Of a DNA stretch of 64,000 nucleotides, positions 23,255 to 52,384 are shown one piece after another. The notes under the pieces are model-generated. The model did not search any database. It saw nothing but the letters and a program-made list of their open reading frames with translations, and was not told the origin of the DNA. The first letter of the stretch is position 1. Each line of letters starts with the position of its first letter. Source of the DNA: a virus (lineage: Duplodnaviria > Caudoviricetes). The stretch is from the IMG/VR virus record IMGVR_UViG_3300043395_004688; one strand, given 5' to 3'. Made by a program: the position numbers and the translations under genes.

Positions 23255-23674
23255 TTAATCCTTGGTACCCAGCACATGATCAGTTTCATCGTCAACTCGT
23301 GGACAAACAGATCCCCAGGTTAATAAAAATTCTAATAATTCTGGACCGTAGGGTATCCAGAATCTTGTGCGATTTAAATGCACTTCAGCACGAATATTAT
23401 TTCGTCTGAGCCAATTAATTACTTCAACAAACTCGTCACTGCGTGTGTATACAGCAAACTGATAAAGTTTATTGTTATTTTCTTTTATTTCAGTGGCATG
23501 TTCAGTGATCATTGCTGTAAGCGAATCAACTTTTACCAAGGCCTTGCGATTTTCGTTAATATCTACCACTTTCCAAAAGTCACCGGTTTTCCAATGCAGT
23601 CGATCGGTATTTAATTCAGCATCAGGTATCATTGCTGTAGGTGTTAAATCCCAATGGTAGTCAACGTATAACAT
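23255..23674 (-). CDS. Hypothetical two-domain protein; C-terminal half resembles the 38-41 kb family
   Basis: VINWLRRNN...RFWIPYGPELLEFLLTWG. Confidence 0.55.
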   Translation of the reverse strand: MLYVDYHWDLTPTAMIPDAELNTDRLHWKTGDFWKVVDINENRKALVKVDSLTAMITEHATEIKENNNKLYQFAVYTRSDEFVEVINWLRRNNIRAEVHLNRTRFWIPYGPELLEFLLTWGSVCPRVDDETDHVLGTKD

Positions 23675-32874: not shown

Positions 32875-35235
32875 ATGCAAGTAAAACCTAAAGTAGCTAT
32901 GATTGGGTGCGGTAAACTGGGCTTGCCCTGTGCCGAAGTCATGGCAGAACACTATGATGTTGTTGGCTACGACACAGTCAAAGACCCCGAAGCCAAGATA
33001 CCCTTGATGGACAGTATTGCTGAAGCAGTTGCTGGTCGCGATATTATTTTTGTAGCAGTACCAACACCGCATCACCCTGCATTTGGTGGCGACGCTCCAA
33101 TAGCACATTTACCTCCAACCAATTTTGACTACGGCATTGTAATCAGTGTGTTAGGGGAATTGAATCAAGTGGTCACTGACGATCAAATGATTGTGTTGAT
33201 CAGTACTGTGTTACCTGGAACTACGAGAACACAACTTTTACCATATCTAACACGCGGTAGATTTGTATACAATCCTTATCTTATTGCCATGGGTAGTGTT
33301 AAATGGGACATGGTCAATCCTGAATGCATTATTATTGGCACCGCCGACGGAACTTTAACGGGCGATGCACAAGAACTCATTGACTTTTATCAGCCATTGA
33401 TGGAAAACAGTCCTAGAGTAAATGTAGGAACCTGGGACGAAGCCGAAGCCATTAAGATTTTCTACAATACTTTTATCAGTGCCAAGATTGGCTTGGTTAA
33501 CATGATACAGGATGTGGCTGAGAAGAATGGCAATATCAATGTTGATGTTGTCACTGACGCACTTAAAGCTGCCACACAGCGTATCACTGGACCGCGTTAC
33601 TTGACCGCTGGCATGGGCGATGCTGGTGCTTGCCATCCCCGAGATAACATTGCTCTACGCTGGCTTTCGCAAGAACTTGATCTTGGCTACGACTTGTTTC
33701 AGGCTATCATGGGCAGTAGAGATGCACAGGCCTTTAACATGGCTCGGCGTCTAGCAGACCTTGCCCGAGAGAGCAATTTACCAGTGATCATTCACGGTAA
33801 AGCCTATAAACCCTATGTGCCCTATGAAATTGGCAGTTACAGCTTACTGGTAGGACACTATGTTGAACACACAGGAGTTCCAATCAGCTATTTTGATCCG
33901 CTTACTGGAGACACAACAGAACCCACTGGCCCAGCAGTGATTCTACTGGCTCATAATCCTGCTGTGACTTATGCTGGAACTGGAGTTGAAGTCACCGGAG
34001 ATGAATTCTATTTCAAATTTCATCCAGGCAGCGTCATTGTTGATCCATGGCGTAGTGTAAGCTCTGTACCTGGCTGTCGTGTGATACACTATGGCAATCC
34101 CAAATTTAACAAGCCTCGAATCAATGGCGCATTACTGTCGCCTGTGCATTGTGGTAGTATTTTTAGAAGAATCAATGATACTTTTAGATTTGAACTAGAT
34201 GAGACCAAACCGGCCATTTACATTGCACAAGTAAAGGTCAATGAGGTTAATTTTGCTGAGCAAGCAAAGCCAATGATTGAGCGCATCAAATCTCAAATAT
34301 CACTGAAGCCTGAAGATCGCATAATCTTTATTACTCAGCACGAAGGTATCATTGCACACGGCATCATGTTCCGTAATCAGCTTCGTGAGTTTTGGCCTGA
34401 AGTCACTGATGACCAGTACATTTATGCCAATGAGCTGTTGTCTTTTGAACAAGCACTGAAATCTAATAATATAGTTGATCCATATAAGAATCATCTGAGC
34501 TTTATGAGCATCAACGAGTGGATAGATCCCAGAGTAATAAATGTTGAGCATGACTACACCAAAAAAGACAAATGGTTTTTAAACTACAACAGAGTGCTGA
34601 GAAGCCACAGATGTCAACTGGTGTCAGAACTACGCAGACGAGAGTTAGATCAGCACGGCTTAGTAAGCTTTGTCCCCGAAGGCGAGTTCTACAATGGATT
34701 TAAGCTCAGCCCGGCTGATGTCTTGGCTAAAGATCCTAATCTCGATGAAGTAGCCCAGGGATACTTTTTAGAATATCTTGACAAGCCACTGGTCATTGAC
34801 GAATACGATGTTACTACTAACGGGCCTGTGGTCAGTGACCACTATCAAAGAACCATTCTAAGTGTTATCACTGAGACCACATGGAATCAAGGTGAAATCT
34901 TTATTTCAGAAAAAACATTCAAGGCCATTGCACACGGTCATCCATTTATTATTGTAGGCCCTGCTGGGTTCTTGAAAAAACTAAGAGAGCTTGGCTTTAG
35001 AACGTTTGGTGGAGTACTCAATGAGCACTACGACGAGATTGAAAATCACAGAGATAGATTGAATTCTATCGTTTCTGAAATTCAGAGGTTGTGTAATCTA
35101 GATCCAATTACTCGTGGGCTAACTTACGGGCAGTTGAGTTCTATTGCTTTTGAAAACAAGCGCATCTACGAAGAACTAAAAGATACACACTTGCAAGGAA
35201 CCTTGTTTAAGTTTCTCAATGACGCTGCATCATAG
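32875..35235 (+). CDS. ugd: UDP-glucose 6-dehydrogenase fused to glycosyltransferase-like domain (paralogue 3)
   Basis: GCGKLG, FVAVPTP, STVLPGT, KIFYNTF, GACHPRD; C-terminal FLNYNRVLRSHR...SVITET...ISEKTFK..GFRTF. Confidence 0.8.
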   Translation: MQVKPKVAMIGCGKLGLPCAEVMAEHYDVVGYDTVKDPEAKIPLMDSIAEAVAGRDIIFVAVPTPHHPAFGGDAPIAHLPPTNFDYGIVISVLGELNQVVTDDQMIVLISTVLPGTTRTQLLPYLTRGRFVYNPYLIAMGSVKWDMVNPECIIIGTADGTLTGDAQELIDFYQPLMENSPRVNVGTWDEAEAIKIFYNTFISAKIGLVNMIQDVAEKNGNINVDVVTDALKAATQRITGPRYLTAGMGDAGACHPRDNIALRWLSQELDLGYDLFQAIMGSRDAQAFNMARRLADLARESNLPVIIHGKAYKPYVPYEIGSYSLLVGHYVEHTGVPISYFDPLTGDTTEPTGPAVILLAHNPAVTYAGTGVEVTGDEFYFKFHPGSVIVDPWRSVSSVPGCRVIHYGNPKFNKPRINGALLSPVHCGSIFRRINDTFRFELDETKPAIYIAQVKVNEVNFAEQAKPMIERIKSQISLKPEDRIIFITQHEGIIAHGIMFRNQLREFWPEVTDDQYIYANELLSFEQALKSNNIVDPYKNHLSFMSINEWIDPRVINVEHDYTKKDKWFLNYNRVLRSHRCQLVSELRRRELDQHGLVSFVPEGEFYNGFKLSPADVLAKDPNLDEVAQGYFLEYLDKPLVIDEYDVTTNGPVVSDHYQRTILSVITETTWNQGEIFISEKTFKAIAHGHPFIIVGPAGFLKKLRELGFRTFGGVLNEHYDEIENHRDRLNSIVSEIQRLCNLDPITRGLTYGQLSSIAFENKRIYEELKDTHLQGTLFKFLNDAAS

Positions 35236-36174
35236 ATCTTTGACCAGGCCTTGAATAATATCATTTGCTGGTAGAATTTCTTTTATTTGGTCTATTGACT
35301 TGCCAGCAAACACATGGCCTCGGCTTGGATCTTTGATTCCTACTATGAGTCCGCGTGTATTGTTCATATTTCTTTCTTTGACATCTGAGCTGAAAACCAG
35401 TGCATTTTGTTTGGTTTCCGTATAAGTGCCAGTGGAAAGTTTAGAAAGGTCTGCGGATGTTGCGCCAATCATTTTTAACTTGGTAGCTTCAGAAATTTTA
35501 CTTTCTTTACTAGCAGCCAGCAATGTTCCTATGCCAATGGCAAATGCTCCTTGAGACATGTATTCTTTCACTTGTTGACTGGTTCCAATACCGCCGGACG
35601 GAATCAATAGTTTGTCTGGAAACTTAGTTCTAAGTATGTTGCATGATTCTTCTAGAGTTAACCCTTCTACAGAACCCCGACCAGCACCATCTGGCCCTTT
35701 AACAATAAATCCATCTAAGTTTTTAGACCATACACCAGGTTCTAAGTGTGCGACCTTGTCTACAATTTTACGAAATATCAATGAGCCGTTGTCTTTAATA
35801 GACCAAATAATTTTAGGAAGCCTTTCAACTACATCATCAGGTAAAACTGTGTCATCCTTGATAATTTCAATGAGCTTGACACGATACTTTAATATCATTT
35901 CTAAAATTAAAGGATCAGTCAAAGACGACAGATTAAGACTCAGCAAGAGCTCACAGTCATTGAATTCGTTGTGATACCCTGCAAGATCCTTTTCTAAATT
36001 TTCATGTATTAAAACTATCTGATCACCAACAACATTCAAATAATTAAAAACAGACAAGCTGGGCAATGCACCAGCTCTACGCACAGCACTGGCCAGTGGC
36101 AAATCAGATACTTGATTCATTGCCATGGCAACGATAGGATAACGGCAGTTAAAAACTTCAGTAAATAGCTTCAT
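35230..36174 (-). CDS. Nitronate monooxygenase/FabK-like flavin TIM-barrel protein
   Basis: YPIVAMAM, GPDGAG, IPSGGIG, GAFAIGIGTLLAASKES. Confidence 0.75.
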   Translation of the reverse strand: MKLFTEVFNCRYPIVAMAMNQVSDLPLASAVRRAGALPSLSVFNYLNVVGDQIVLIHENLEKDLAGYHNEFNDCELLLSLNLSSLTDPLILEMILKYRVKLIEIIKDDTVLPDDVVERLPKIIWSIKDNGSLIFRKIVDKVAHLEPGVWSKNLDGFIVKGPDGAGRGSVEGLTLEESCNILRTKFPDKLLIPSGGIGTSQQVKEYMSQGAFAIGIGTLLAASKESKISEATKLKMIGATSADLSKLSTGTYTETKQNALVFSSDVKERNMNNTRGLIVGIKDPSRGHVFAGKSIDQIKEILPANDIIQGLVKDL

Positions 36175-36210: not shown

Positions 36211-36819
36211 ATGTCGATGAAGTTTGCAGAAACTCTGAAGTTTATCAAAGATATCAACATTGAAGGCGATCTCTTAGAAATTGGCTCTGACCGTGGAGAT
36301 GGAAGTACCTATATTTTTGCCACGCTAGCCAAAAATCTTGGGCGCCAGCTGTTTTCGGTAGATGTAGATTCTGATGTCATTGAAAAAAACCGAGAAGAAT
36401 TTAAACAATTACCCTTTGACTTACCTGTTGATTTTTTTAATCAAACCGGTGAACAGTTTTTAGAAGACCATAACAATCTTCGCTTTAGCATAGTGCTACT
36501 TGATAATTTTGATTGGGACTGGAACCCACATAACAGCGAATCTCATGTTCTAGAACAACAAAAAAAATATCGAGAACGGTTTGGCTTAGAAATGAATAAT
36601 CATCAAAGTCAATTTACCCATTTACGACAAGCACTGATGCTTACTCATATGCTAACGGATGAAGCAATAGTAATATGCGATGACACATATTGGGCACATG
36701 AATACGGAACATACACTGGCAAGTGTGGTGCTGTTATACCTTACCTAGAAACCTTAGGATTTAATGTAGTATTAAACAAAGATCATGGCATTGTTATGCT
36801 AAGAAAGAATAATCAATGA
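36211..36819 (+). CDS. Class I SAM-dependent methyltransferase
   Basis: LLEIGSDRGDGST, FSVD, VLLD, VICDD; SD GGAG favours the ATG at 36211. Confidence 0.7.
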   Translation: MSMKFAETLKFIKDINIEGDLLEIGSDRGDGSTYIFATLAKNLGRQLFSVDVDSDVIEKNREEFKQLPFDLPVDFFNQTGEQFLEDHNNLRFSIVLLDNFDWDWNPHNSESHVLEQQKKYRERFGLEMNNHQSQFTHLRQALMLTHMLTDEAIVICDDTYWAHEYGTYTGKCGAVIPYLETLGFNVVLNKDHGIVMLRKNNQ

Positions 36820-37586
36820 AAATAGTCTTAATCACCGGAGGCTTTGATCCAATACACAGCGGACACATTGCCTATATAACCGAAGCCAAAAAGCTAGGCG
36901 ACCTATTAATTGTGGGAGTCAACAGCGATGCTTGGCTTGAACGCAAAAAGGGACGAGCCTTTTTGCCCATGCACGAACGGCTGGCAATTGTAGCTGGCAT
37001 TCGAGGTGTTGATCAAACACTTATCTTCAATGACAACGATGACTCGGCTTGCGATGCTATTCAAAAAGTAAAAAACAGCTACAGCTATGCTGAACTTGTT
37101 TTTGCCAATGGCGGAGATCGAACCTCCGAAAATATTCCAGAAATGCGTATTGAAGGTGTGGAGTTTGTGTTTGGCGTAGGAGGTTCCAATAAAAAGAACA
37201 GCAGTAGTTGGATCTTGCGCGACTGGAAGCAGCCCAAAACAGACAGGGCATGGGGCGAGTATCGTGTGCTTTATGATCATCCAATGATTGGTTCTGCTAC
37301 CAAGGTCAAAGAGCTTACTGTAGAGCCAGGAAAAAAGCTCAGCCTACAGCGACACAAAAATCGTCACGAATATTGGTTTGTGGTTGAAGGCCGTTGCGAT
37401 GTTTACGGTGCATTGCCTGGGGGCTACGCGATACCTCCTAGAACCTTAGGTCCGCATGAAACCATGGAAATCCAAGCCGGAGAATGGCACCAGCTGACCA
37501 ATCCTTATAACGAACCATGCCGGCTCATTGAGATCCAGTATGGTTCACAATGTGAAGAAGCCGATATTGAACGAAATCCTGGTTGA
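36816..37586 (+). CDS. Cytidylyltransferase (RfaE/TagD-like) fused to cupin (mannose-6-P isomerase type II C-terminal-like)
   Basis: TGGFDPIHSGH, FANGGDR, KKNSSS; WGEYRVL..LSLQRHKNRHEYW..HQLTN. Confidence 0.85.
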   Translation: MKIVLITGGFDPIHSGHIAYITEAKKLGDLLIVGVNSDAWLERKKGRAFLPMHERLAIVAGIRGVDQTLIFNDNDDSACDAIQKVKNSYSYAELVFANGGDRTSENIPEMRIEGVEFVFGVGGSNKKNSSSWILRDWKQPKTDRAWGEYRVLYDHPMIGSATKVKELTVEPGKKLSLQRHKNRHEYWFVVEGRCDVYGALPGGYAIPPRTLGPHETMEIQAGEWHQLTNPYNEPCRLIEIQYGSQCEEADIERNPG

Positions 37587-37612
37587 CTTACACCGTTCGG
37601 TACTGTTATACT
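37583..37612 (+). promoter_or_regulatory. sigma70-type promoter
   Basis: TTGACT-18 nt-TATACT with extended TG. Confidence 0.6.
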
Positions 37613-37650
37613 CAGTGGGTAGTTTATTACTCATACCATAGGAGATTCAA

Positions 37651-37902
37651 ATGAGTTTTTCACCCGAGCAGATTGCCAAGCTTACCAAGGTGATCCAGGA
37701 AGGCGTTCAAGTCAAGCGTGAGATTGATGATCTTAATGTTGGACTCAAGGAAACTGTTGCAGCCATTGCTGAAGAAATGAATATCAAGGCAGCGGTGCTT
37801 AATAAAGCCATTACCAAGGCGTTCAAGGGCGACTTTGACAAGGATCAAACGGATCTCGAAGCCGTTGAAGAAATTCTTATTGTAACCAAGAACAAGGCCT
37901 AA
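37651..37902 (+). CDS. T4 DsbA/GapR-like small DNA-binding protein
   Basis: 83 aa; helical pattern KLTKVIQEG...IDDL..GLKE...EEMNIKAAVLNKAI resembles DsbA. Confidence 0.55.
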   Translation: MSFSPEQIAKLTKVIQEGVQVKREIDDLNVGLKETVAAIAEEMNIKAAVLNKAITKAFKGDFDKDQTDLEAVEEILIVTKNKA

Positions 37903-38193
37903 GTGAAATCACTGCTATTAAGTGTTCGTGACTACATTGTAGAGGATTGGCGAGAAAATCCTCTACGGTGTGTGCTGGAAATTTCTGCATGGTTTCTCAG
38001 CATTGGTTGCGCGATCACTATGGCCTTGACTCTGCCCAATCCGCCATTCCTAATCTTATATCCCTTGTTTATCACCCAATGTGCTATCTTTGCATGGGCT
38101 TGCAAAACACGCGGTAGTACAGGATTGCTGGCCAACTACTTGTTGTTGGTTACCATTGACTCTGTGGCCTTAGTGAGATTGATAATGCAATGA
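37903..38193 (+). CDS. Small multi-pass membrane protein
   Basis: Three hydrophobic segments; GTG start. Confidence 0.65.
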   Translation: MKSLLLSVRDYIVEDWRENPLRCVLEISAWFLSIGCAITMALTLPNPPFLILYPLFITQCAIFAWACKTRGSTGLLANYLLLVTIDSVALVRLIMQ

Positions 38194-38303
38194 AAGACGA
38201 TTGGTCATTCATACTGCTAATCATCCTGTTGATGCTTTTGTTTTGGGGAGAGCCAGATCTGTTTGATGCGATTCGGGCATATTTGATTCAATCTCTTCGA
38301 TGA
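38190..38303 (+). CDS. 37-aa membrane peptide (not in ORF track)
   Basis: MKDDWSFILLIILLMLLFWGEPDLF...; ATGA overlaps at both ends. Confidence 0.55.
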   Translation: MKDDWSFILLIILLMLLFWGEPDLFDAIRAYLIQSLR

Positions 38304-38527
38304 AAACTGATCAGGTTGCCAAATTCGTAATTTTACCAATAGCACATGCTTATCATAGTCCCACATTGTTTGTGTCAGATTACAAATGGTGGTGCAGCAA
38401 CCAAGAAGAAATTGAAACATGGATGAGAGAAAACTTACCCAATGGTACTTCGCACCTGCAAGGTATGGTTCTTTCATTTGAATCGGTTGAAGATCGTGCT
38501 ATGTTTTTACTTAGATTTGGTTTATGA
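38300..38527 (+). CDS. Small paralogue family member 1
   Basis: ETWMREN...LSFESVEDRAMFLLRFG. Confidence 0.7.
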   Translation: MKTDQVAKFVILPIAHAYHSPTLFVSDYKWWCSNQEEIETWMRENLPNGTSHLQGMVLSFESVEDRAMFLLRFGL

Positions 38528-38536
38528 GTGCTGGCT

Positions 38537-38914
38537 ATGAAATACGAAATAAAAAGCATGTTTCAATTACCATCAGGGAGATATATTCCTCGCGGCCTCA
38601 ATATTATTGAGAAACTTTGGTGGCGATTTGTGCCCGGAGTTGTTATTAATGTAAAGTGGCCTAAAGGTGCAGTGGTAGTTGGACCAAATAGCAGAAGCTG
38701 GGACGGTGTTACAAATCCTTGTGTGCGCCAATTAGTAGAAAGTGCTGATCCAAACGATCACTACCGGCCTTGGTTAGAAAAACATGTAGGCCGCCAAGGA
38801 CGAGATTGGGATTGGGGCTTGACCAATAATGATGCCACTGACAACAGATTGACCATAAAGATTAGACAGAAGCATCAAGACTCTGCCGTAATTGCCAAAC
38901 TGCAATGGTCATGA
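38537..38914 (+). CDS. Small paralogue family member 2
   Basis: PWLEKH...IKIRQKHQDSAVIAKLQWS. Confidence 0.65.
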   Translation: MKYEIKSMFQLPSGRYIPRGLNIIEKLWWRFVPGVVINVKWPKGAVVVGPNSRSWDGVTNPCVRQLVESADPNDHYRPWLEKHVGRQGRDWDWGLTNNDATDNRLTIKIRQKHQDSAVIAKLQWS

Positions 38915-39186
38915 AAACAGCAACACAAGTCTTAGAAGACCAAATTGCTGATGAATTATCTAGGCAATTGGCAGAGAAAATTGATTTTGAAGTCCTGTGT
39001 AGTTTGCTTGTACAAATAGGTTGGATACAAGTTAAATTAGAAGATGTGTTGCAACCAAGCAAACAAACAGCTGGCATGGTTAATTGGCTACACAAAGAGT
39101 GTTCTGGACACTGGAGGCATCGTGGCAAAACATTTGTATTTGAAAACAAGGAAGACGCTGTCTTATTTAGATTGACATGGGTGTAA
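38911..39186 (+). CDS. Small paralogue family member 3
   Basis: NWLHKE...FVFENKEDAVLFRLTWV. Confidence 0.7.
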   Translation: MKTATQVLEDQIADELSRQLAEKIDFEVLCSLLVQIGWIQVKLEDVLQPSKQTAGMVNWLHKECSGHWRHRGKTFVFENKEDAVLFRLTWV

Positions 39187-39190
39187 ATAG

Positions 39191-39403
39191 ATGCGTCATC
39201 TCAAACGAAATCTTTGGCCTTTTAAAATTAAGCTAGATGTAGTAGATTCAAATCTAAGCATTGACGCTGTTGAACTTTGGCTAAGCGAAACCTGCGGATC
39301 ATTCAAATCAAATTGGAATGCAGTATACCATGCCAACTATACTGATTTTTATTTTAAAAACGGTGAGGATGCCATGCTTTTTAAATTGCAATTTGGATAC
39401 TGA
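39191..39403 (+). CDS. Small paralogue family member 4
   Basis: LWLSET...FYFKNGEDAMLFKLQFG. Confidence 0.7.
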   Translation: MRHLKRNLWPFKIKLDVVDSNLSIDAVELWLSETCGSFKSNWNAVYHANYTDFYFKNGEDAMLFKLQFGY

Positions 39404-39405
39404 AC

Positions 39406-39729
39406 ATGCCTAAGATTATAAAAATGGATAAGCGACACGCAGGGCACCCGCACTTTACATATTATCTAAAGCCGGTGAGTTCTGAAGATAACTTTCACAA
39501 TCTCAGAGCATGGTGTTGGGAAACTTGGGGGCCTAGCAAAGGTCTGCATGACTGGCTAAGAGCCAATGCTGATCTCAAAAACATATTGCATCCGTGGCAA
39601 CCAGATCCTGAAACAGAAGACCGTTGTCAAAATCCTCACTGGTGTTGGCTTGAGGACCAATACCGCCGGCGCATAATGTTTGCGGGTGCAGATGAAGTGG
39701 CCCTGTACAAGTTAACCTATGGGCTATGA
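39406..39729 (+). CDS. Small paralogue family member 5
   Basis: AWCWET...IMFAGADEVALYKLTYG. Confidence 0.7.
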   Translation: MPKIIKMDKRHAGHPHFTYYLKPVSSEDNFHNLRAWCWETWGPSKGLHDWLRANADLKNILHPWQPDPETEDRCQNPHWCWLEDQYRRRIMFAGADEVALYKLTYGL

Positions 39730-40016
39730 CCTTACCTAAAATACAAGTTCATCACTGGCATTACAATGATGGTATCGTTTTGGTGCCACCATTACTGCGG
39801 CTGGCCAATCAAAAGGAATCAGAATTTTGTGCTGAATTAGTAGGCTGGCATTGTTGCGTTTACACCAATGACTATGATGGTTTCTTTTTATGGATGGAAA
39901 AACATTGCCCCAGAGCGGAATGTATTTCAAGGTTTAACAGCGGCGATCCAATGATTACTGTACATATCTCAGATCAAGAAGAAGCGGCATATTTTAAATT
40001 ACATTTTCAAACATGA
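39726..40016 (+). CDS. Small paralogue family member 6
   Basis: LWMEKH...VHISDQEEAAYFKLHF. Confidence 0.7.
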   Translation: MTLPKIQVHHWHYNDGIVLVPPLLRLANQKESEFCAELVGWHCCVYTNDYDGFFLWMEKHCPRAECISRFNSGDPMITVHISDQEEAAYFKLHFQT

Positions 40017-40261
40017 AATGGTTTTGTGCTATCCATGTTTGGCGTAATGGTTGGGGACATACTGTGGTACTGAAAGAAAATCCCAAATACAGTTCTCCTC
40101 AATACTATGGCACTACTGTTGACCCAGATGAGATGGAAGAGGTAATAGCATGGACCGATGAAAATGCCCAAGCACGACGAATTTCATATGATACCTGGCA
40201 ATTCAAGTCTCGCAGGGCAGCAGAGGAGTTTATCATGCTGTATAATCTTAGGTGGGTCTAA
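40013..40261 (+). CDS. Small paralogue family member 7
   Basis: AWTDEN...WQFKSRRAAEEFIMLYNLRWV. Confidence 0.7.
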   Translation: MKWFCAIHVWRNGWGHTVVLKENPKYSSPQYYGTTVDPDEMEEVIAWTDENAQARRISYDTWQFKSRRAAEEFIMLYNLRWV

Positions 40262-40542
40262 TGCCCCTAGAGGTGCATAAACAGCAACTAACTGCAAAAT
40301 TTAGCTGGATAACTAGAGTTGACATAGACGAATTAGGGTATAACATTAACAATGTACCTTGGCTATTTGACATTTTGCTATGGTCTGATTCGTGGTCTTG
40401 GGAATGTACTACCACCATCAACAGCAAAAGCGACAACATTCAATGGAAGTTTGATTCCAGCCAAGAGCTTGAAGAATTTCTAATGTTGTTTGCACTAAAA
40501 TGGGGGAAGATGACACATGTCCGATTCTTGGACGATGATTGA
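40261..40542 (+). CDS. Small paralogue family member 8
   Basis: WKFDSSQELEEFLMLFALKWG. Confidence 0.65.
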   Translation: MPLEVHKQQLTAKFSWITRVDIDELGYNINNVPWLFDILLWSDSWSWECTTTINSKSDNIQWKFDSSQELEEFLMLFALKWGKMTHVRFLDDD

Positions 40543-40822
40543 CGCCGACGGGCGAGAGTTTGGTATTGACATTGTGGGGTCAAGGCAACTGGGAGAACTG
40601 TGTATCTACTATTGTTTTCCTTACTACATACCCAAAGGTTCAACGCCGCCCTATCCTGGTTTTGAGTGTTTGAGGATTTGGTTGAATTTAAATTTCTCCA
40701 GTGTGGCCCACGAAGTGGTTACAAAAGGAGTGCCAATGGATACTAAAAAATCATGGGCTACATTAGAAGTAACTTTCAGCGATCCTGAGGAAGCTATGTT
40801 GTTTAGGCTAATGTGCAGTTGA
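40517..40822 (+). CDS. Small paralogue family member 9
   Basis: IWLNLN...VTFSDPEEAMLFRLMCS. Confidence 0.65.
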   Translation: MSDSWTMIDADGREFGIDIVGSRQLGELCIYYCFPYYIPKGSTPPYPGFECLRIWLNLNFSSVAHEVVTKGVPMDTKKSWATLEVTFSDPEEAMLFRLMCS

Positions 40823-40847
40823 CATTGCCACATACACACAGTATAAT
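40819..40847 (+). promoter_or_regulatory. Consensus sigma70 promoter overlapped by an inverted repeat
   Basis: TTGACA-17 nt-TATAAT; CATACACA/TGTGTATG repeat at 40831-40855 spans the -10 box and the ATG. Confidence 0.8.
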
Positions 40848-40852
40848 TGTGT

Positions 40853-41269
40853 ATGCAAATCGTTGTACATTCAAGCAGCCCCGGTAAACAGGCCTTGGTT
40901 GAGGCTAGTGCAAGGTTCTACGAACAAGAACTTAAATTACAAAAAAGCAAGTACACTCTTGAGATCCAATTTAAGAAAGGCTTGGCCAAGCGAAAAGGCA
41001 TGAGAGGTTGTGTAAGTGACATCGCTCCAAAACATTTGATCATGTTACTAGACTCCAATCTGCAAGATCATGCGTTGTTTGAAACCCTTGCACACGAAAT
41101 GATTCATGTCAAGCAATATGCTCGAGGACAGTTTAGGATTGACAGAAACAAAACCATATGGTTAGGTAAACCACTCAAACTAAAATATTATCAACAGCCC
41201 TGGGAGATCGAAGCCATGGGTAAAGAAAAAGTACTTGCTAGTAAAATATACAGTATTATTTGGAGTTAG
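40853..41269 (+). CDS. Zincin-like metallopeptidase
   Basis: LAHEMIHVKQY (HExxH) and PWEIEA. Confidence 0.8.
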   Translation: MQIVVHSSSPGKQALVEASARFYEQELKLQKSKYTLEIQFKKGLAKRKGMRGCVSDIAPKHLIMLLDSNLQDHALFETLAHEMIHVKQYARGQFRIDRNKTIWLGKPLKLKYYQQPWEIEAMGKEKVLASKIYSIIWS

Positions 41270-41270
41270 C

Positions 41271-41492
41271 ATGTACGAAGAGTTTACTTGGACAAATTCC
41301 AAACATGACCCTATGATAATCGAGATCAAGCATCACGGTCATGTGGTAATGCATTTCTTTCTCGGTGAAGCCATGGAAGGTGCCGGTAGAGCTCGTGTAA
41401 TGAGTCATGTCCGTGAGTGCGATCACAGTCCTTGGCTGAGTCAGTGGCGAGAACATGCCGAACAAGAAATGCTAGCAAAGTTAGGAAGATAA
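41271..41492 (+). CDS. Hypothetical protein
   Basis: SD GGAG before the ATG at 41271. Confidence 0.55.
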   Translation: MYEEFTWTNSKHDPMIIEIKHHGHVVMHFFLGEAMEGAGRARVMSHVRECDHSPWLSQWREHAEQEMLAKLGR

Positions 41493-41908: not shown

Positions 41909-44554
41909 ATGTTTGTTGACGCCTATCATGATAAAAAGACTGAAGTCATCCATGTGGTTGAACGAGTGGATGGCCAGAGAATTCTCAAAGAATATCCTGC
42001 TCGCTATGTACTGTATTACCCAGACAACAAGGGTAAGTTCACTGACATCTCCGGCAATCGAGTAACGCGAGTAATGGTCAGTAATCTTGCGGCCTTTGAC
42101 AAAGAACGCAGGATTCACAACAACAAGAGACTCTGTGAAAGCGATTACAGGCCGCTTAACCGCTGTCTTGAAGAACAGTACGGTGGTCAAGAAGCACCCA
42201 ATCTGCATGTGGCTTTCTTTGACATTGAGGTGGCCTATGACAAGGTCAAGGGCTTTGCCGACCCCAGTGATCCTTTCAACAATGTCACTGCCATTACCAC
42301 TTACTTAGGGTGGCTGGATAGAAACATTACCTTGGTTATAAAGCCAGATGAAATGCCTGTAAACCAGGCAGCAGAAATTGCTGGCAAGTTTGATGATACC
42401 ATACTCTGTGAAGATGAAAAGCAGATGTTGGAGATGTGGCTGGATCTGATTCAGGATGCAGATGTCTACACAGGTTGGAACAGCGAAGGCTTTGATATTC
42501 CTTATCTCACTAATCGCATCACTCGTGTGCTTGGCAAAGAACTGACTCGTAAGATGTGCCTGTGGGACCAGTTTCCTACAAAGAGATATTTTGAAAAATA
42601 TGGTAAGGAACTTGAGACCTATGATCCTATTGGTCGAGTTCACCTAGATTATCTAGAACTTTATCGCAAGTACAACTATCATGAGATGCACACATACCGC
42701 TTGGATGCCATTGGCGAGTATGAAATTGGTGAGAAAAAGATTCCATATGAAGGCACACTTGATCAATTGTACAACAATGATTTTGAAAAGTTCATTGCCT
42801 ATAACAGGCAGGATGTTGTGTTGCTCAAAAAACTCGACGACAAACTTAAATTCATTGAACTTACCAACCTGATTAGTCATGCCAATACTGTAGGACTTAG
42901 AGCTACACTTGGAGCGGTGGCTGTCACTGACCAAGCAGTTATCAACGAAGCTCATCGCCTTAACATGGTTGTTCCTGACAGACCGCGGAGAGGAGACAGC
43001 GAGGACAATGCTGCCGCAGGTGCCTATGTTGCTGTACCCAAGCAAGGCATGCACGAGTGGATTGGCTCCATGGACATTAACAGTCTGTATCCAAGTTTGA
43101 TTCGTGCGCTAAACATGAGCCCTGAAACCATTGTTGGCCAGGTGCGCCAAACAAGAACCAATGAAGGCATTCGAGAATTCAAAGAAGCCGGAAAGGGCAT
43201 TGCTGAGTTTTGGGAAGGTAAGTTTGCCTGCTTTGAATATGAAAGTGTAATGAATCGAGAGATTGGTACCAGTGAAATTGTTGACTGGGCCGATGGAACC
43301 AGCACTGAAATGAGTAGTGCCGAGGTATACGACTATGTGTTCCATGGCGGTAAGCCTTTGATGATCAGTGGCAATGGCACTATCTTTAGATACGATGCCA
43401 AGGGTGTTATTCCTGGTCTTCTGGAACGCTGGTATGCAGAGCGTAAAGAGCTACAAAAGAAAGCTAAGTCAGCCACCGATCCTAAAGAGTTTGAGTTTTG
43501 GGACAAGCGGCAGCTGGTTAAAAAGATTAACCTTAACTCAGCATACGGCGCCTTGCTTAACGCAGGTTCAAGATTCTTTGACCAACGACTTGGGCAGTCA
43601 ACTACCCTTTGCGGTCGACTAGTTGCCAGGCACATGGCTGGTGCTGTCAACGATTGCTTAACCGGTGTAAAGGATCATATGGGAGATGCTATCATCTATG
43701 GTGATACAGACTCGGTATATTTCAGTGCTTATCCTTTGTTTAAAGATCAAATTGAAAAGGGTGAGATCGCTTGGACAGATGAAAAAGCCATTGAACTGTA
43801 TGATGCCATTAGTGAACAGGTGAATGCCACATTTCCGGCTTTTATGAACTATGCCTTTAACGCACCAGCTGCACAAGGCGAGATTATCAAAGCAGGTCGC
43901 GAGCTAGTTGCAAGCAAGGGCATCTACATGACCAAGAAGCGTTATGCTGTTCTTATTGTTGATAAGGAAGGCAAGCGCAAAGATGTCAATGGATCCACTG
44001 GTGAACTCAAAGCCATGGGTCTTGACATGAAGCGAGCAGATACTCCCGAATTCATGCAAAGGTTCTTGGAAGAAATCCTAACAATGACTTTGGAAGGCAA
44101 AACGGAAGCTGAAGTTATGGCTCGTGTCAAGCAGTTCCGTGAGGAGTTTAAGAGCCGTCCGGGTTGGGAAAAGGGTACACCCAAGCGTGTTAACAACCTA
44201 ACTAAGCATACTGATGTTTATAAGAAAACAGGCAAGTGTGGAGTGGGACATGCTATGGCAGCTATCAATTGGAACAGGATCAAAGAAGCCTATGGCGATC
44301 GGCGTAGCATGGATATCACTGACGGGCAAAAGGCCATTGTGTGCAAACTAAGAAGCAACCCGTTGCAGATTAACTCAATTGCCTATCCCATTGATGAGAT
44401 GAACCTACCAGATTGGTTTAAGCAGTTGCCCTTTGATCATGTGGCCATGGAAGAAACTATCATTGACAGCAAAATTGATAACCTTCTGGGCGTACTAAAA
44501 TGGGACCTTAGCCAAAGCAAGGACCGCGGATTGATCAATGAGTTATTCTCTTAA
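41909..44554 (+). CDS. Family B DNA polymerase (T4 gp43-like)
   Basis: Exo motifs FDIEV, GWNSEGFD, YNRQD; Pol motifs DINSLYPS, KKINLNSAYG, YGDTDS, KKRY. Confidence 0.97.
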   Translation: MFVDAYHDKKTEVIHVVERVDGQRILKEYPARYVLYYPDNKGKFTDISGNRVTRVMVSNLAAFDKERRIHNNKRLCESDYRPLNRCLEEQYGGQEAPNLHVAFFDIEVAYDKVKGFADPSDPFNNVTAITTYLGWLDRNITLVIKPDEMPVNQAAEIAGKFDDTILCEDEKQMLEMWLDLIQDADVYTGWNSEGFDIPYLTNRITRVLGKELTRKMCLWDQFPTKRYFEKYGKELETYDPIGRVHLDYLELYRKYNYHEMHTYRLDAIGEYEIGEKKIPYEGTLDQLYNNDFEKFIAYNRQDVVLLKKLDDKLKFIELTNLISHANTVGLRATLGAVAVTDQAVINEAHRLNMVVPDRPRRGDSEDNAAAGAYVAVPKQGMHEWIGSMDINSLYPSLIRALNMSPETIVGQVRQTRTNEGIREFKEAGKGIAEFWEGKFACFEYESVMNREIGTSEIVDWADGTSTEMSSAEVYDYVFHGGKPLMISGNGTIFRYDAKGVIPGLLERWYAERKELQKKAKSATDPKEFEFWDKRQLVKKINLNSAYGALLNAGSRFFDQRLGQSTTLCGRLVARHMAGAVNDCLTGVKDHMGDAIIYGDTDSVYFSAYPLFKDQIEKGEIAWTDEKAIELYDAISEQVNATFPAFMNYAFNAPAAQGEIIKAGRELVASKGIYMTKKRYAVLIVDKEGKRKDVNGSTGELKAMGLDMKRADTPEFMQRFLEEILTMTLEGKTEAEVMARVKQFREEFKSRPGWEKGTPKRVNNLTKHTDVYKKTGKCGVGHAMAAINWNRIKEAYGDRRSMDITDGQKAIVCKLRSNPLQINSIAYPIDEMNLPDWFKQLPFDHVAMEETIIDSKIDNLLGVLKWDLSQSKDRGLINELFS

Positions 44555-44570: not shown

Positions 44571-44599
44571 TTGACTTTGTCTACTTTTCTAAATATAAT
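44571..44599 (+). promoter_or_regulatory. sigma70-type promoter with overlapping late-like motif
   Basis: TTGACT-17 nt-TATAAT; TCTAAATA at 44588-44595. Confidence 0.65.
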
Positions 44600-51871: not shown

Positions 51872-52119
51872 TGGAAGTTGTAATTTACAGCAAGGACAAT
51901 TGTCCATACTGCGATATGGCCAAGAACTGGTTCAAACGAAAGAACCTTACTTTTACTGAACACAAAATTGGAACCAATGGTTTTACTAGAGAAATGCTAT
52001 TAGAAGCTGTACCAACGGCAAGAACCGTTCCTCAAATCATCGTTGATGGTGAATTAATTGGTGGCTGGACTGATTTGTGTCAAAGCAAGTTGTATGCCCA
52101 GTACAGTAATTCAAACTGA
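51871..52119 (+). CDS. Glutaredoxin
   Basis: CPYC, TVPQI, IGG. Confidence 0.92.
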   Translation: MEVVIYSKDNCPYCDMAKNWFKRKNLTFTEHKIGTNGFTREMLLEAVPTARTVPQIIVDGELIGGWTDLCQSKLYAQYSNSN

Positions 52120-52384
52120 GTATCGGTTAAAAACAGTACTGCCCTTGGAACAAGTGCCTGACCTAAGAAGTTGGCTACAAAATAACCTCGGGCATTCCTC
52201 AACAGCATGGAAGATTGAAACGCACAGTGGATCTTTTTTTAACTGGCGAGGAATTGCAGGTGCTGTTAAATCTAAAAATCCCGAAACTAAATTGCCAGTT
52301 ACTGTAATTGTAACGGTATATGAATTTAAACATTTGCTGATCTTTGCTAAGTCCTGGGAAACCGAGCTATTGCTAGAAGAGTAA
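52094..52384 (+). CDS. Hypothetical protein, distant member of the 38-41 kb family
   Basis: SWLQNN...VTVYEFKHLLIFAKSW. Confidence 0.55.
   Translation: MPSTVIQTEYRLKTVLPLEQVPDLRSWLQNNLGHSSTAWKIETHSGSFFNWRGIAGAVKSKNPETKLPVTVIVTVYEFKHLLIFAKSWETELLLEE

Follow-up and report, generated by a model that had tools for sequence, protein, structure and literature searches.

A tandem array of nine highly diverged paralogs of one undescribed small domain in a freshwater giant phage

What are the nine small genes that lie back to back at positions 38300-40822 of a 64,000-nucleotide stretch of the tailed-phage record IMGVR_UViG_3300043395_004688? Our analysis of this whole stretch, referred to as the window throughout, identifies them as old, very diverged paralogs that share a single undescribed domain some 60 residues long, arranged in an array whose turnover is fast. 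As to their role, we see about an even chance that the family constitutes an early, non-virion repertoire of non-enzymatic intracellular binding modules.

Nine paralogs of one domain

The nine open reading frames (ORFs), all on the + strand and 70-128 residues long as listed, mostly overlap, with junctions that range from a 26-nucleotide overlap to a 9-nucleotide gap and include two ATGA overlaps. Judged by where their orthologs start, the better start codons of m2 and m8 are the ATGs at 38537 and 40261. The array members and two dispersed candidates, o1 and o2, are given below with their E-values against an external profile and their hhalign probabilities, both described thereafter.

m1, 38300..38527, + strand: member of 75 residues; E 7e-7; hhalign 95%; ratio of nonsynonymous to synonymous substitutions (dN/dS) 0.14
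m2, 38537..38914, + strand: 125 residues from the ATG; E 2e-4; hhalign 35-41%
m3, 38905..39186, + strand: member of 93 residues; E 6e-16; hhalign 99.7%; N-terminal helix resembling a segment of the major capsid protein (MCP)
m4, 39191..39403, + strand: minimal member of 70 residues; E 6e-18
m5, 39406..39729, + strand: member of 107 residues; E 1e-9; hhalign 97%; insert of about 40 residues; invariant Cys/His
m6, 39726..40016, + strand: member of 96 residues; E 9e-8; hhalign 98%
m7, 40013..40261, + strand: member of 82 residues; E 1e-8; hhalign 97%, and 95% against m8
m8, 40261..40542, + strand: 93 residues from the ATG; E 5e-4; hhalign 90% to the family and 95% to m7
m9, 40517..40822, + strand: member of 101 residues; E 6e-8; hhalign 97%
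o1, 23255..23674, - strand: dispersed member of 139 residues; E 9e-5; hhalign 91%
o2, 52094..52384, + strand: possible dispersed member of 96 residues, borderline; E 0.024; hhalign 42%

In alignments, the shared features are a Trp ahead of the first strand, a helix of the form W-x-x-x-N, a strand ending in Phe, and a last helix reading (E/D)-A-x-L-F-x-L-x-W; the C-terminal motif of the array members is F.F...(E/D)A.LF.L.W. The core signature, which consists of a Trp in the first helix, a Phe in the third strand and A-x-x-F-x-L-x-W in the second helix, is present across the family, with m2 and o2 retaining only part of it. As pairwise BLAST between array members is weak for most pairs, kinship was tested in three ways. 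In leave-one-out hidden Markov model (HMM) searches, each omitted member ranked 9th to 13th among 516 six-frame pieces, directly behind the eight training sequences, and o1 and o2 reappeared among the next matches. The external profile was built from 80 domains of other contigs only, without the window itself or L001 and L002, which nearly duplicate it, and was searched against 813 six-frame pieces of the window; its top 11 matches were exactly the nine array ORFs, o1 and o2, with the next piece at E 0.15. Finally, comparison of each member's ortholog profile with the external-only family profile by hhalign yielded probabilities of 90-99.7% for m1 and m3-m9, 91% for o1, and 41-42% for m2 and o2. 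Compared with one another, m1, m3-m7 and m9 are linked at 80-99%, and m8 is joined through m7 at 95%.

On this sequence evidence, eight of the nine genes, all but m2, are secure members of the family, o1 is supported as a dispersed member, and o2 is a borderline one. A preliminary description of the window had proposed nine abutting, diverged small paralogs with a shared W...N helix and C-terminal signature, and all of the above bears this out, as does a common topology in the models of m4 and m2. The first of the two outliers it had named, at 23255-23674, stands, and the second, at 52094-52384, is left as borderline. Its observation that DNA-level repeats are lacking holds as well: the only matches among the array genes are 14-16 nucleotides long and fall on motif codons, which argues that the duplications are old. 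An origin of the resemblance in chance or composition, with the ORFs being unrelated, would account for the weak pairwise BLAST scores; the leave-one-out HMMs, the hhalign comparisons and the external profile all contradict it, however, as do the concordant predicted topologies of m4 and m2, making it extremely improbable. It is rejected for eight of the nine genes and retained for o2 and, in part, for m2.

A small domain of generic ferredoxin-like shape

The topology of the domain was modeled for m4 and for the C-terminal half of m2. The AlphaFold2 (AF2) model of m4 with its paralogs, at a predicted local distance difference test score of 79, comprises a strand (residues 11-16), a helix (24-34), two further strands (38-45 and 48-55) and a final helix (58-68). 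The shared unit is therefore predicted to be a β-α-β-β-α domain that spans about 60 residues, is built around a Trp/Phe core and has a generic ferredoxin/RRM/ACT-like shape. The near-invariant positions of the family alignment are the aromatic or aliphatic residues W30, F55, F64 and L66 plus helix caps, and the alignment contains no conserved polar cluster that would hint at catalysis. Core aromatics and helix caps are constant across the family and N-termini, loops and inserts vary, in line with the constant scaffold and variable remainder envisaged in the preliminary description. Trp accounts for about 5% of all residues; the median isoelectric point is 6.0, the majority of members being acidic to neutral.

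Fold searches against the PDB, AFDB clusters, BFVD and the ESM Atlas, and VIA-wide, returned only generic ferredoxin-like matches with Z-scores of about 7 or lower, together with uncharacterized phage proteins, several from Atu_ph07 among them. Solved structures matched in this way include the TyrA ACT domain, many RRMs and a V-ATPase domain. At the sequence level, the nine ORFs, canonical members from outside the window and the members in phages Phosso and Atu_ph07 found nothing relevant in Pfam, PHROGs, NCBIfam or PADLOC; in PADLOC, which holds known anti-phage defense proteins, no family match was obtained at E≤0.1, and profile searches of PDB sequences with two alignments (A3, which defines the family, and A5) gave nothing significant. 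To judge from these four libraries, the domain family is undescribed, and the supposition made from the start, of an uncharacterized family, holds.

Could the members be RRM-like RNA-binding regulators, tuning the translation or stability of phage or host transcripts early in infection? The order of strand, helix, two strands and helix is that of RRM (PF00076) and ACT domains, helix 2 likewise opens with an acidic-Ala cap, and VIA-align gives Z-scores of 6-7 to TyrA ACT and several RRMs; many RRMs and ACT domains are among the best solved-structure matches (Z 5.5-7), and the F-x-F-x-x-x-E-D-A motif of strand 3 and helix 2 recalls the stretch from RNP1 to helix 2 in RRMs. However, the nine members gave no RRM match in Pfam at E≤1, nor did ten canonical members at E≤0.1, the fourth strand is absent, conservation is lacking at the aromatic positions of RNP1 and RNP2, the core is rich in Trp, and the predominantly acidic to neutral composition also speaks against RNA binding. 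We therefore regard such a function as unlikely and the likeness as one of shape alone. Membership in the RRM family was rejected on the missing Pfam match, strand 4 and RNP conservation, and membership in the ACT family (β-α-β-β-α-β) was rejected as well, with no Pfam match and a structural likeness of Z 6.6-7.

Purifying selection and rapid turnover

Relatives of the locus were located by synteny, anchored on two genes: a fusion of a cytidylyltransferase with a cupin/mannose-6-phosphate-isomerase-like domain (36816-37586, + strand), which adjoins the array unit upstream, and an NMO-like oxidoreductase just upstream of the unit (35230-36174, - strand). Against the close relative L001, dN/dS is 0.04-0.25 for m1-m8 (m9 gave no computable dS), so that purifying selection marks these eight as genuine coding genes. 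At the same time, the array genes diverge far faster than the DNA polymerase: against L007 their dN is 0.15-0.47, with m4, m7 and m8 at 0.35-0.47, compared with 0.016 for the polymerase. Along the array, dS is mosaic and ranges from 0.12 to 1.4.

The gene content is equally fluid. L001 carries the nine members and one extra, L007 has m5-m9 followed by an m4-like gene, L010 retains m5, m8 and m9 only, and in L003 about 24 small genes include 14 members, which form a different set. In the relatives with 10, 6 and 3 members the flanking genes are 69-98% identical, and in relatives whose flanking enzyme is 52-60% identical the array locus holds no members. Within this flux, each orthologous group keeps motifs of its own, with orthologs persisting down to 30-50% identity: RFNSGDPMITVHI in m6, where it is kept in 24 orthologs with identity down to 46%; RAWCWETWGPSK and CQNPHWCW in m5; and PPYPGF in m9. 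Invariant Cys and His residues recur among the orthologs of m5 (WCW with CQNPHWCW) and m6 (GWHC with CP.A.C), and these sets could represent zinc sites added to the scaffold.

Members are gained, lost and reordered rapidly, and dS is mosaic, which is also what one would expect if the genes were dispensable fillers in a hyperplastic region, for instance remnants of mobile cassettes or genes for superinfection exclusion, with no mechanism in common. Such fillers would, however, hardly show purifying selection on all eight members for which it is computable, persistence of orthologs with conserved group-specific motifs, or expansion to dozens of copies as in Phosso (see below), and we give this explanation only a slim chance.

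The conserved gene m2

The second gene of the array behaves differently. Its relatives number 619 clusters (at 90% identity) at E≤0.001, with about 60% identity and the invariant polar stretches SADPNDHYRPW and DNRLTIKIR, which means that m2 evolves far more slowly than its neighbors in the array. No family library searched contains a match to it. In its AF2 model, m2 consists of two parts, and the C-terminal half (residues 65-124) shows the β-α-β-β-α topology of the family. The fold matches of m2 overlap with those of m4: among the top 50 in the PDB, 12 are common to both, as are six in BFVD. Homologs of m2 lie inside family arrays in all five contexts examined, namely the window, L001, L003, L040 (with 11 members around it) and L041. 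Thus, m2 may be either a constrained, diverged member of the family or its constant companion.

The transcription unit and its promoters

The array forms the distal part of a larger unit that runs from p83 through TM96 and a 37-residue ORF, previously unlisted, into the nine genes. It is bounded by two promoter-like sites.

37583..37612, + strand: sigma-70-type promoter-like site (TTGACT, 18 nucleotides, TATACT with TG) heading the array unit; hexamers conserved in L001, L007, L010 and L003, spacer variable
37651..37902, + strand: p83, first gene of the unit, a small helical protein of 83 residues and possible regulator; phrog_12534 at 1e-18 and phrog_639 'transcriptional regulator' at 2.7e-9
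37903..38193, + strand: TM96, three-helix membrane protein of 96 residues, from hydrophobic segments in its sequence; without a match in Pfam or PHROGs; also kept in L001, L007 and L003
38190..38303, + strand: hydrophobic (membrane) ORF of 37 residues, overlapped at its ATG by the stop of TM96 and at its own stop by the start of m1
40819..40847, + strand: perfect sigma-70 consensus (TTGACA, 17 nucleotides, TATAAT; 12 of 12 positions), starting the next unit and overlapping the end of m9; conserved in L001, L007 and L010

For both bounding promoters, the hexamer pairs are kept in four to five related loci and the spacers drift, which upholds the sigma-70 promoter at 37583 that had been placed ahead of the array. 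As the unit is headed by a promoter of this type, its expression is, by analogy with T4, probably early and would rely on the host polymerase in its unmodified form. Near the array, the late-promoter motif of T4, TATAAATA, was not found. Exact matches to contigs from two metatranscriptomes are limited to 37642-37899 and 38025-38347, are too sparse to show transcription, and could stem from DNA carry-over.

The protein p83 is 100% identical in L001 despite a dS of 0.49 (dN/dS 0.01), and is therefore under very strong constraint. The 37-residue ORF is likewise identical in L001; in L007 its N-terminal 24 residues are conserved and its C-terminal part lies in another frame. Its recognition removes an apparent gap of 106 nucleotides before m1. 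A DsbA-like gene, which the preliminary description had placed upstream of the array, has to be withdrawn: the genes there are p83, TM96 and the 37-residue ORF, of which p83 and TM96 have no thioredoxin match and TM96 lacks a CxxC motif.

Absence from virions and capsid-like segments

Evidence on the location of the proteins comes from Atu_ph07, in which four family members overlap the annotated genes gp232, gp234, gp255 and gp258. None of these four is among the 131 proteins identified in purified Atu_ph07 virions (Table S5), a list that includes proteins of 7-10 kDa (PMC6102473). As far as can be told from this phage, family members are thus not part of the virion.

Several subfamilies carry N-terminal pieces like conserved stretches of the T4-type MCP, the Pfam family Gp23 (PF07068). 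The N-terminal pieces of P0048 (L004:2378-2698) and P0072 (L005:4501-4806) are like Gp23 positions 8-39, with both proteins sited in arrays and not in a capsid gene; that of P0059, of the m3 subfamily, is like positions 171-223; and in a 145-residue ORF of Phosso (L039:1324-1758, - strand, corresponding to Phosso 113935-114294), positions 305-354 are joined to a family domain within an array of small genes. Two of the 12 members of the m3 subfamily match Gp23 in Pfam, at best with 2.3e-5, m3 itself having no match, and the N-terminal profile of this subfamily aligns weakly (8.4 bits) to residues 203-229 of the Phosso MCP, an E-I-D-x-E-I-L helix. Among Atlas clusters with a Pfam family, the nearest one shows Gp23 in 13% of the proteins it contains. 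The phage's own capsid gene was not found within the window. Phosso further contains, at about 182.2-182.8 kb (L038:1390-2073, + strand), a 228-residue frame that carries a second copy of the capsid N-terminal GV(Q/S)PM region and matches Gp23 positions 9-62 at E 4.6e-10; it has no family domain.

These pieces, the Atlas neighbor and the existence of two-domain fusions (e.g. P0040, P0041, P0046, P0053 and P0054) would suit a family that works with the capsid protein, whether by helping its assembly, by inhibiting that of rival capsids or by acting as decoys, or whose array members form a hetero-oligomer. Yet among the nine only m3 has a capsid-like piece, below Pfam significance, the Atu_ph07 members are missing from virions, and the promoter is of the early and not the late type. 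A fixed hetero-oligomer, which had been suggested at the outset, fits poorly with close relatives that keep 10, 6 or 3 members. We therefore consider this group of explanations improbable. T4 internal proteins such as IPI* are small, too, and bear a capsid-targeting leader ending in L-x-E, which the leader of m3, M-K-T-A-T-Q-V-L-E, loosely recalls; in contrast to those proteins, the leader occurs in m3 only, and promoter type and virion absence again set the family apart.

A more specific variant builds on host proteins that sense the capsid protein, of which Avs7 and Dsr1 are known examples (PMC13581612) and which make a decoy role of the capsid-like pieces conceivable. The domain might then be a carrier that displays short peptides, in several subfamilies a segment that ranks among the best conserved in the phage's own MCP (the GVQPM region, the E-I-D-x-E-I-L helix or a Y-x-P-Y-V-P-L region). 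Such proteins would act early as decoys or sponges for capsid sensors or poison the assembly of rival capsids; the array would be a wider decoy repertoire, with m2 as its fixed partner. We put this forward as a long shot, with the fusions of capsid fragments pointing to a specific, testable hypothesis.

Occurrence in other phages

An exhaustive profile search covering 1.84 billion representatives yielded 58 proteins at E≤0.001, nearly all of 60-200 residues and with the motif. Its top match, P0039, is a Big_2 repeat protein of 1831 residues and was dismissed as a false positive. Arrays of the family occur in unrelated phage contigs, and its members can be followed into two cultured phages.

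L003, unrelated contig: 14 family matches
L004, contig of 3.2 kb: 8 family matches
L005: 12 family matches
L040: 11 family matches
Phosso, 469 kb with 735 annotated features: 46 matches at E≤0.01 in several clusters, all annotated as hypothetical
Atu_ph07: 5 family matches
T4, KVP40, P-SSM2 and coliphage A4: no family match

The members in cultured phages are detectable by profile only; blastn with the array region and tblastn with two canonical members against 50,697 phage records gave no match. Long arrays of an undescribed domain thus occur in many freshwater phages, and in Phosso about 6% of the annotated features belong to a domain that is absent from the four libraries searched. Its definition gathers dozens of 'hypothetical proteins' per genome into a single testable family, which can be studied in the laboratory in Phosso with Sinorhizobium and in Atu_ph07 with Agrobacterium as the host.

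How does the array compare with known expansions of small phage genes? T4-type phages possess hyperplastic regions of small early genes, which resemble it in that their genes are small, tightly packed and variable and lie behind strong host-type promoters beside replication genes; unlike the array, however, the representatives listed above lack the family. Among giant phages, Bacillus phage G carries an expanded family of small proteins with a zinc ribbon in roughly 35 copies (PMC7824862). Both cases feature many diverged tandem copies of one small domain without an assigned function, but the array domain is unrelated to the zinc ribbon, and its members have traceable orthologs across many freshwater and soil phages.

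A proposed role for the array

What could a phage gain from such a set of genes? In the scenario that we favor, of a repertoire of early binding modules, transcription of the unit would start at its host-type promoter and include, besides the array genes, the small regulator-like protein and the two small membrane proteins, most genes being translationally coupled. The conserved positions build the fold, and the paralogs differ in the surface motifs that each of them conserves, in inserts or in an N-terminal extension. During takeover, each would hold a different target, be it of the host, a host defense or a rival phage. Lineages would then gain, lose and reshuffle members as their targets change. 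The analysis itself shows the homology, the class of fold, the selection, the turnover of the array, the conserved promoters and the absence from one virion proteome; early timing, binding activity and the kind of target are what we infer in this scenario. The 'effector repertoire' invoked in the preliminary description is plausible.

Several points weigh against this scenario. The generic fold, at a Z-score of about 7, could equally bind RNA or small ligands; the timing is read from the promoter type, with metatranscriptome contigs confined to the two short stretches given above; and m2, at its high identity across hundreds of clusters, is unlike the remaining members. If it is true that members bind specific targets, the family would be a source of new host-takeover or counter-defense factors.

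Flanking genes and origin of the window

Directly 3' of the array, a gene at 40853-41269 (+ strand) encodes a small, putative SprT/DUF6782-like metalloprotease with a HEMIH motif, and is kept in all close relatives. It is followed by a small gene at 41235-41492 (+ strand) with the core ...PMII.IK.HG...SPW..., which the window, L007 and L003 all have on the downstream side of the array. Its counterpart in L001 (2919-3146) is instead located upstream of the membrane gene, which indicates a local rearrangement. A further, near-perfect sigma-70 consensus (11 of 12 positions) lies at a gene boundary at 44571-44599 (+ strand).

The source of the window is an uncultured freshwater giant phage, and a contig of 327,035 bases is on record with two of its array proteins. 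For the phage's family-B DNA polymerase (41909-44554), identity does not exceed 47% with the enzymes of Sinorhizobium phage Phosso and Agrobacterium phage Atu_ph07 and is about 41% with those of Rak2-like phages. Near word-for-word copies of the window DNA are present in several freshwater metagenomes.

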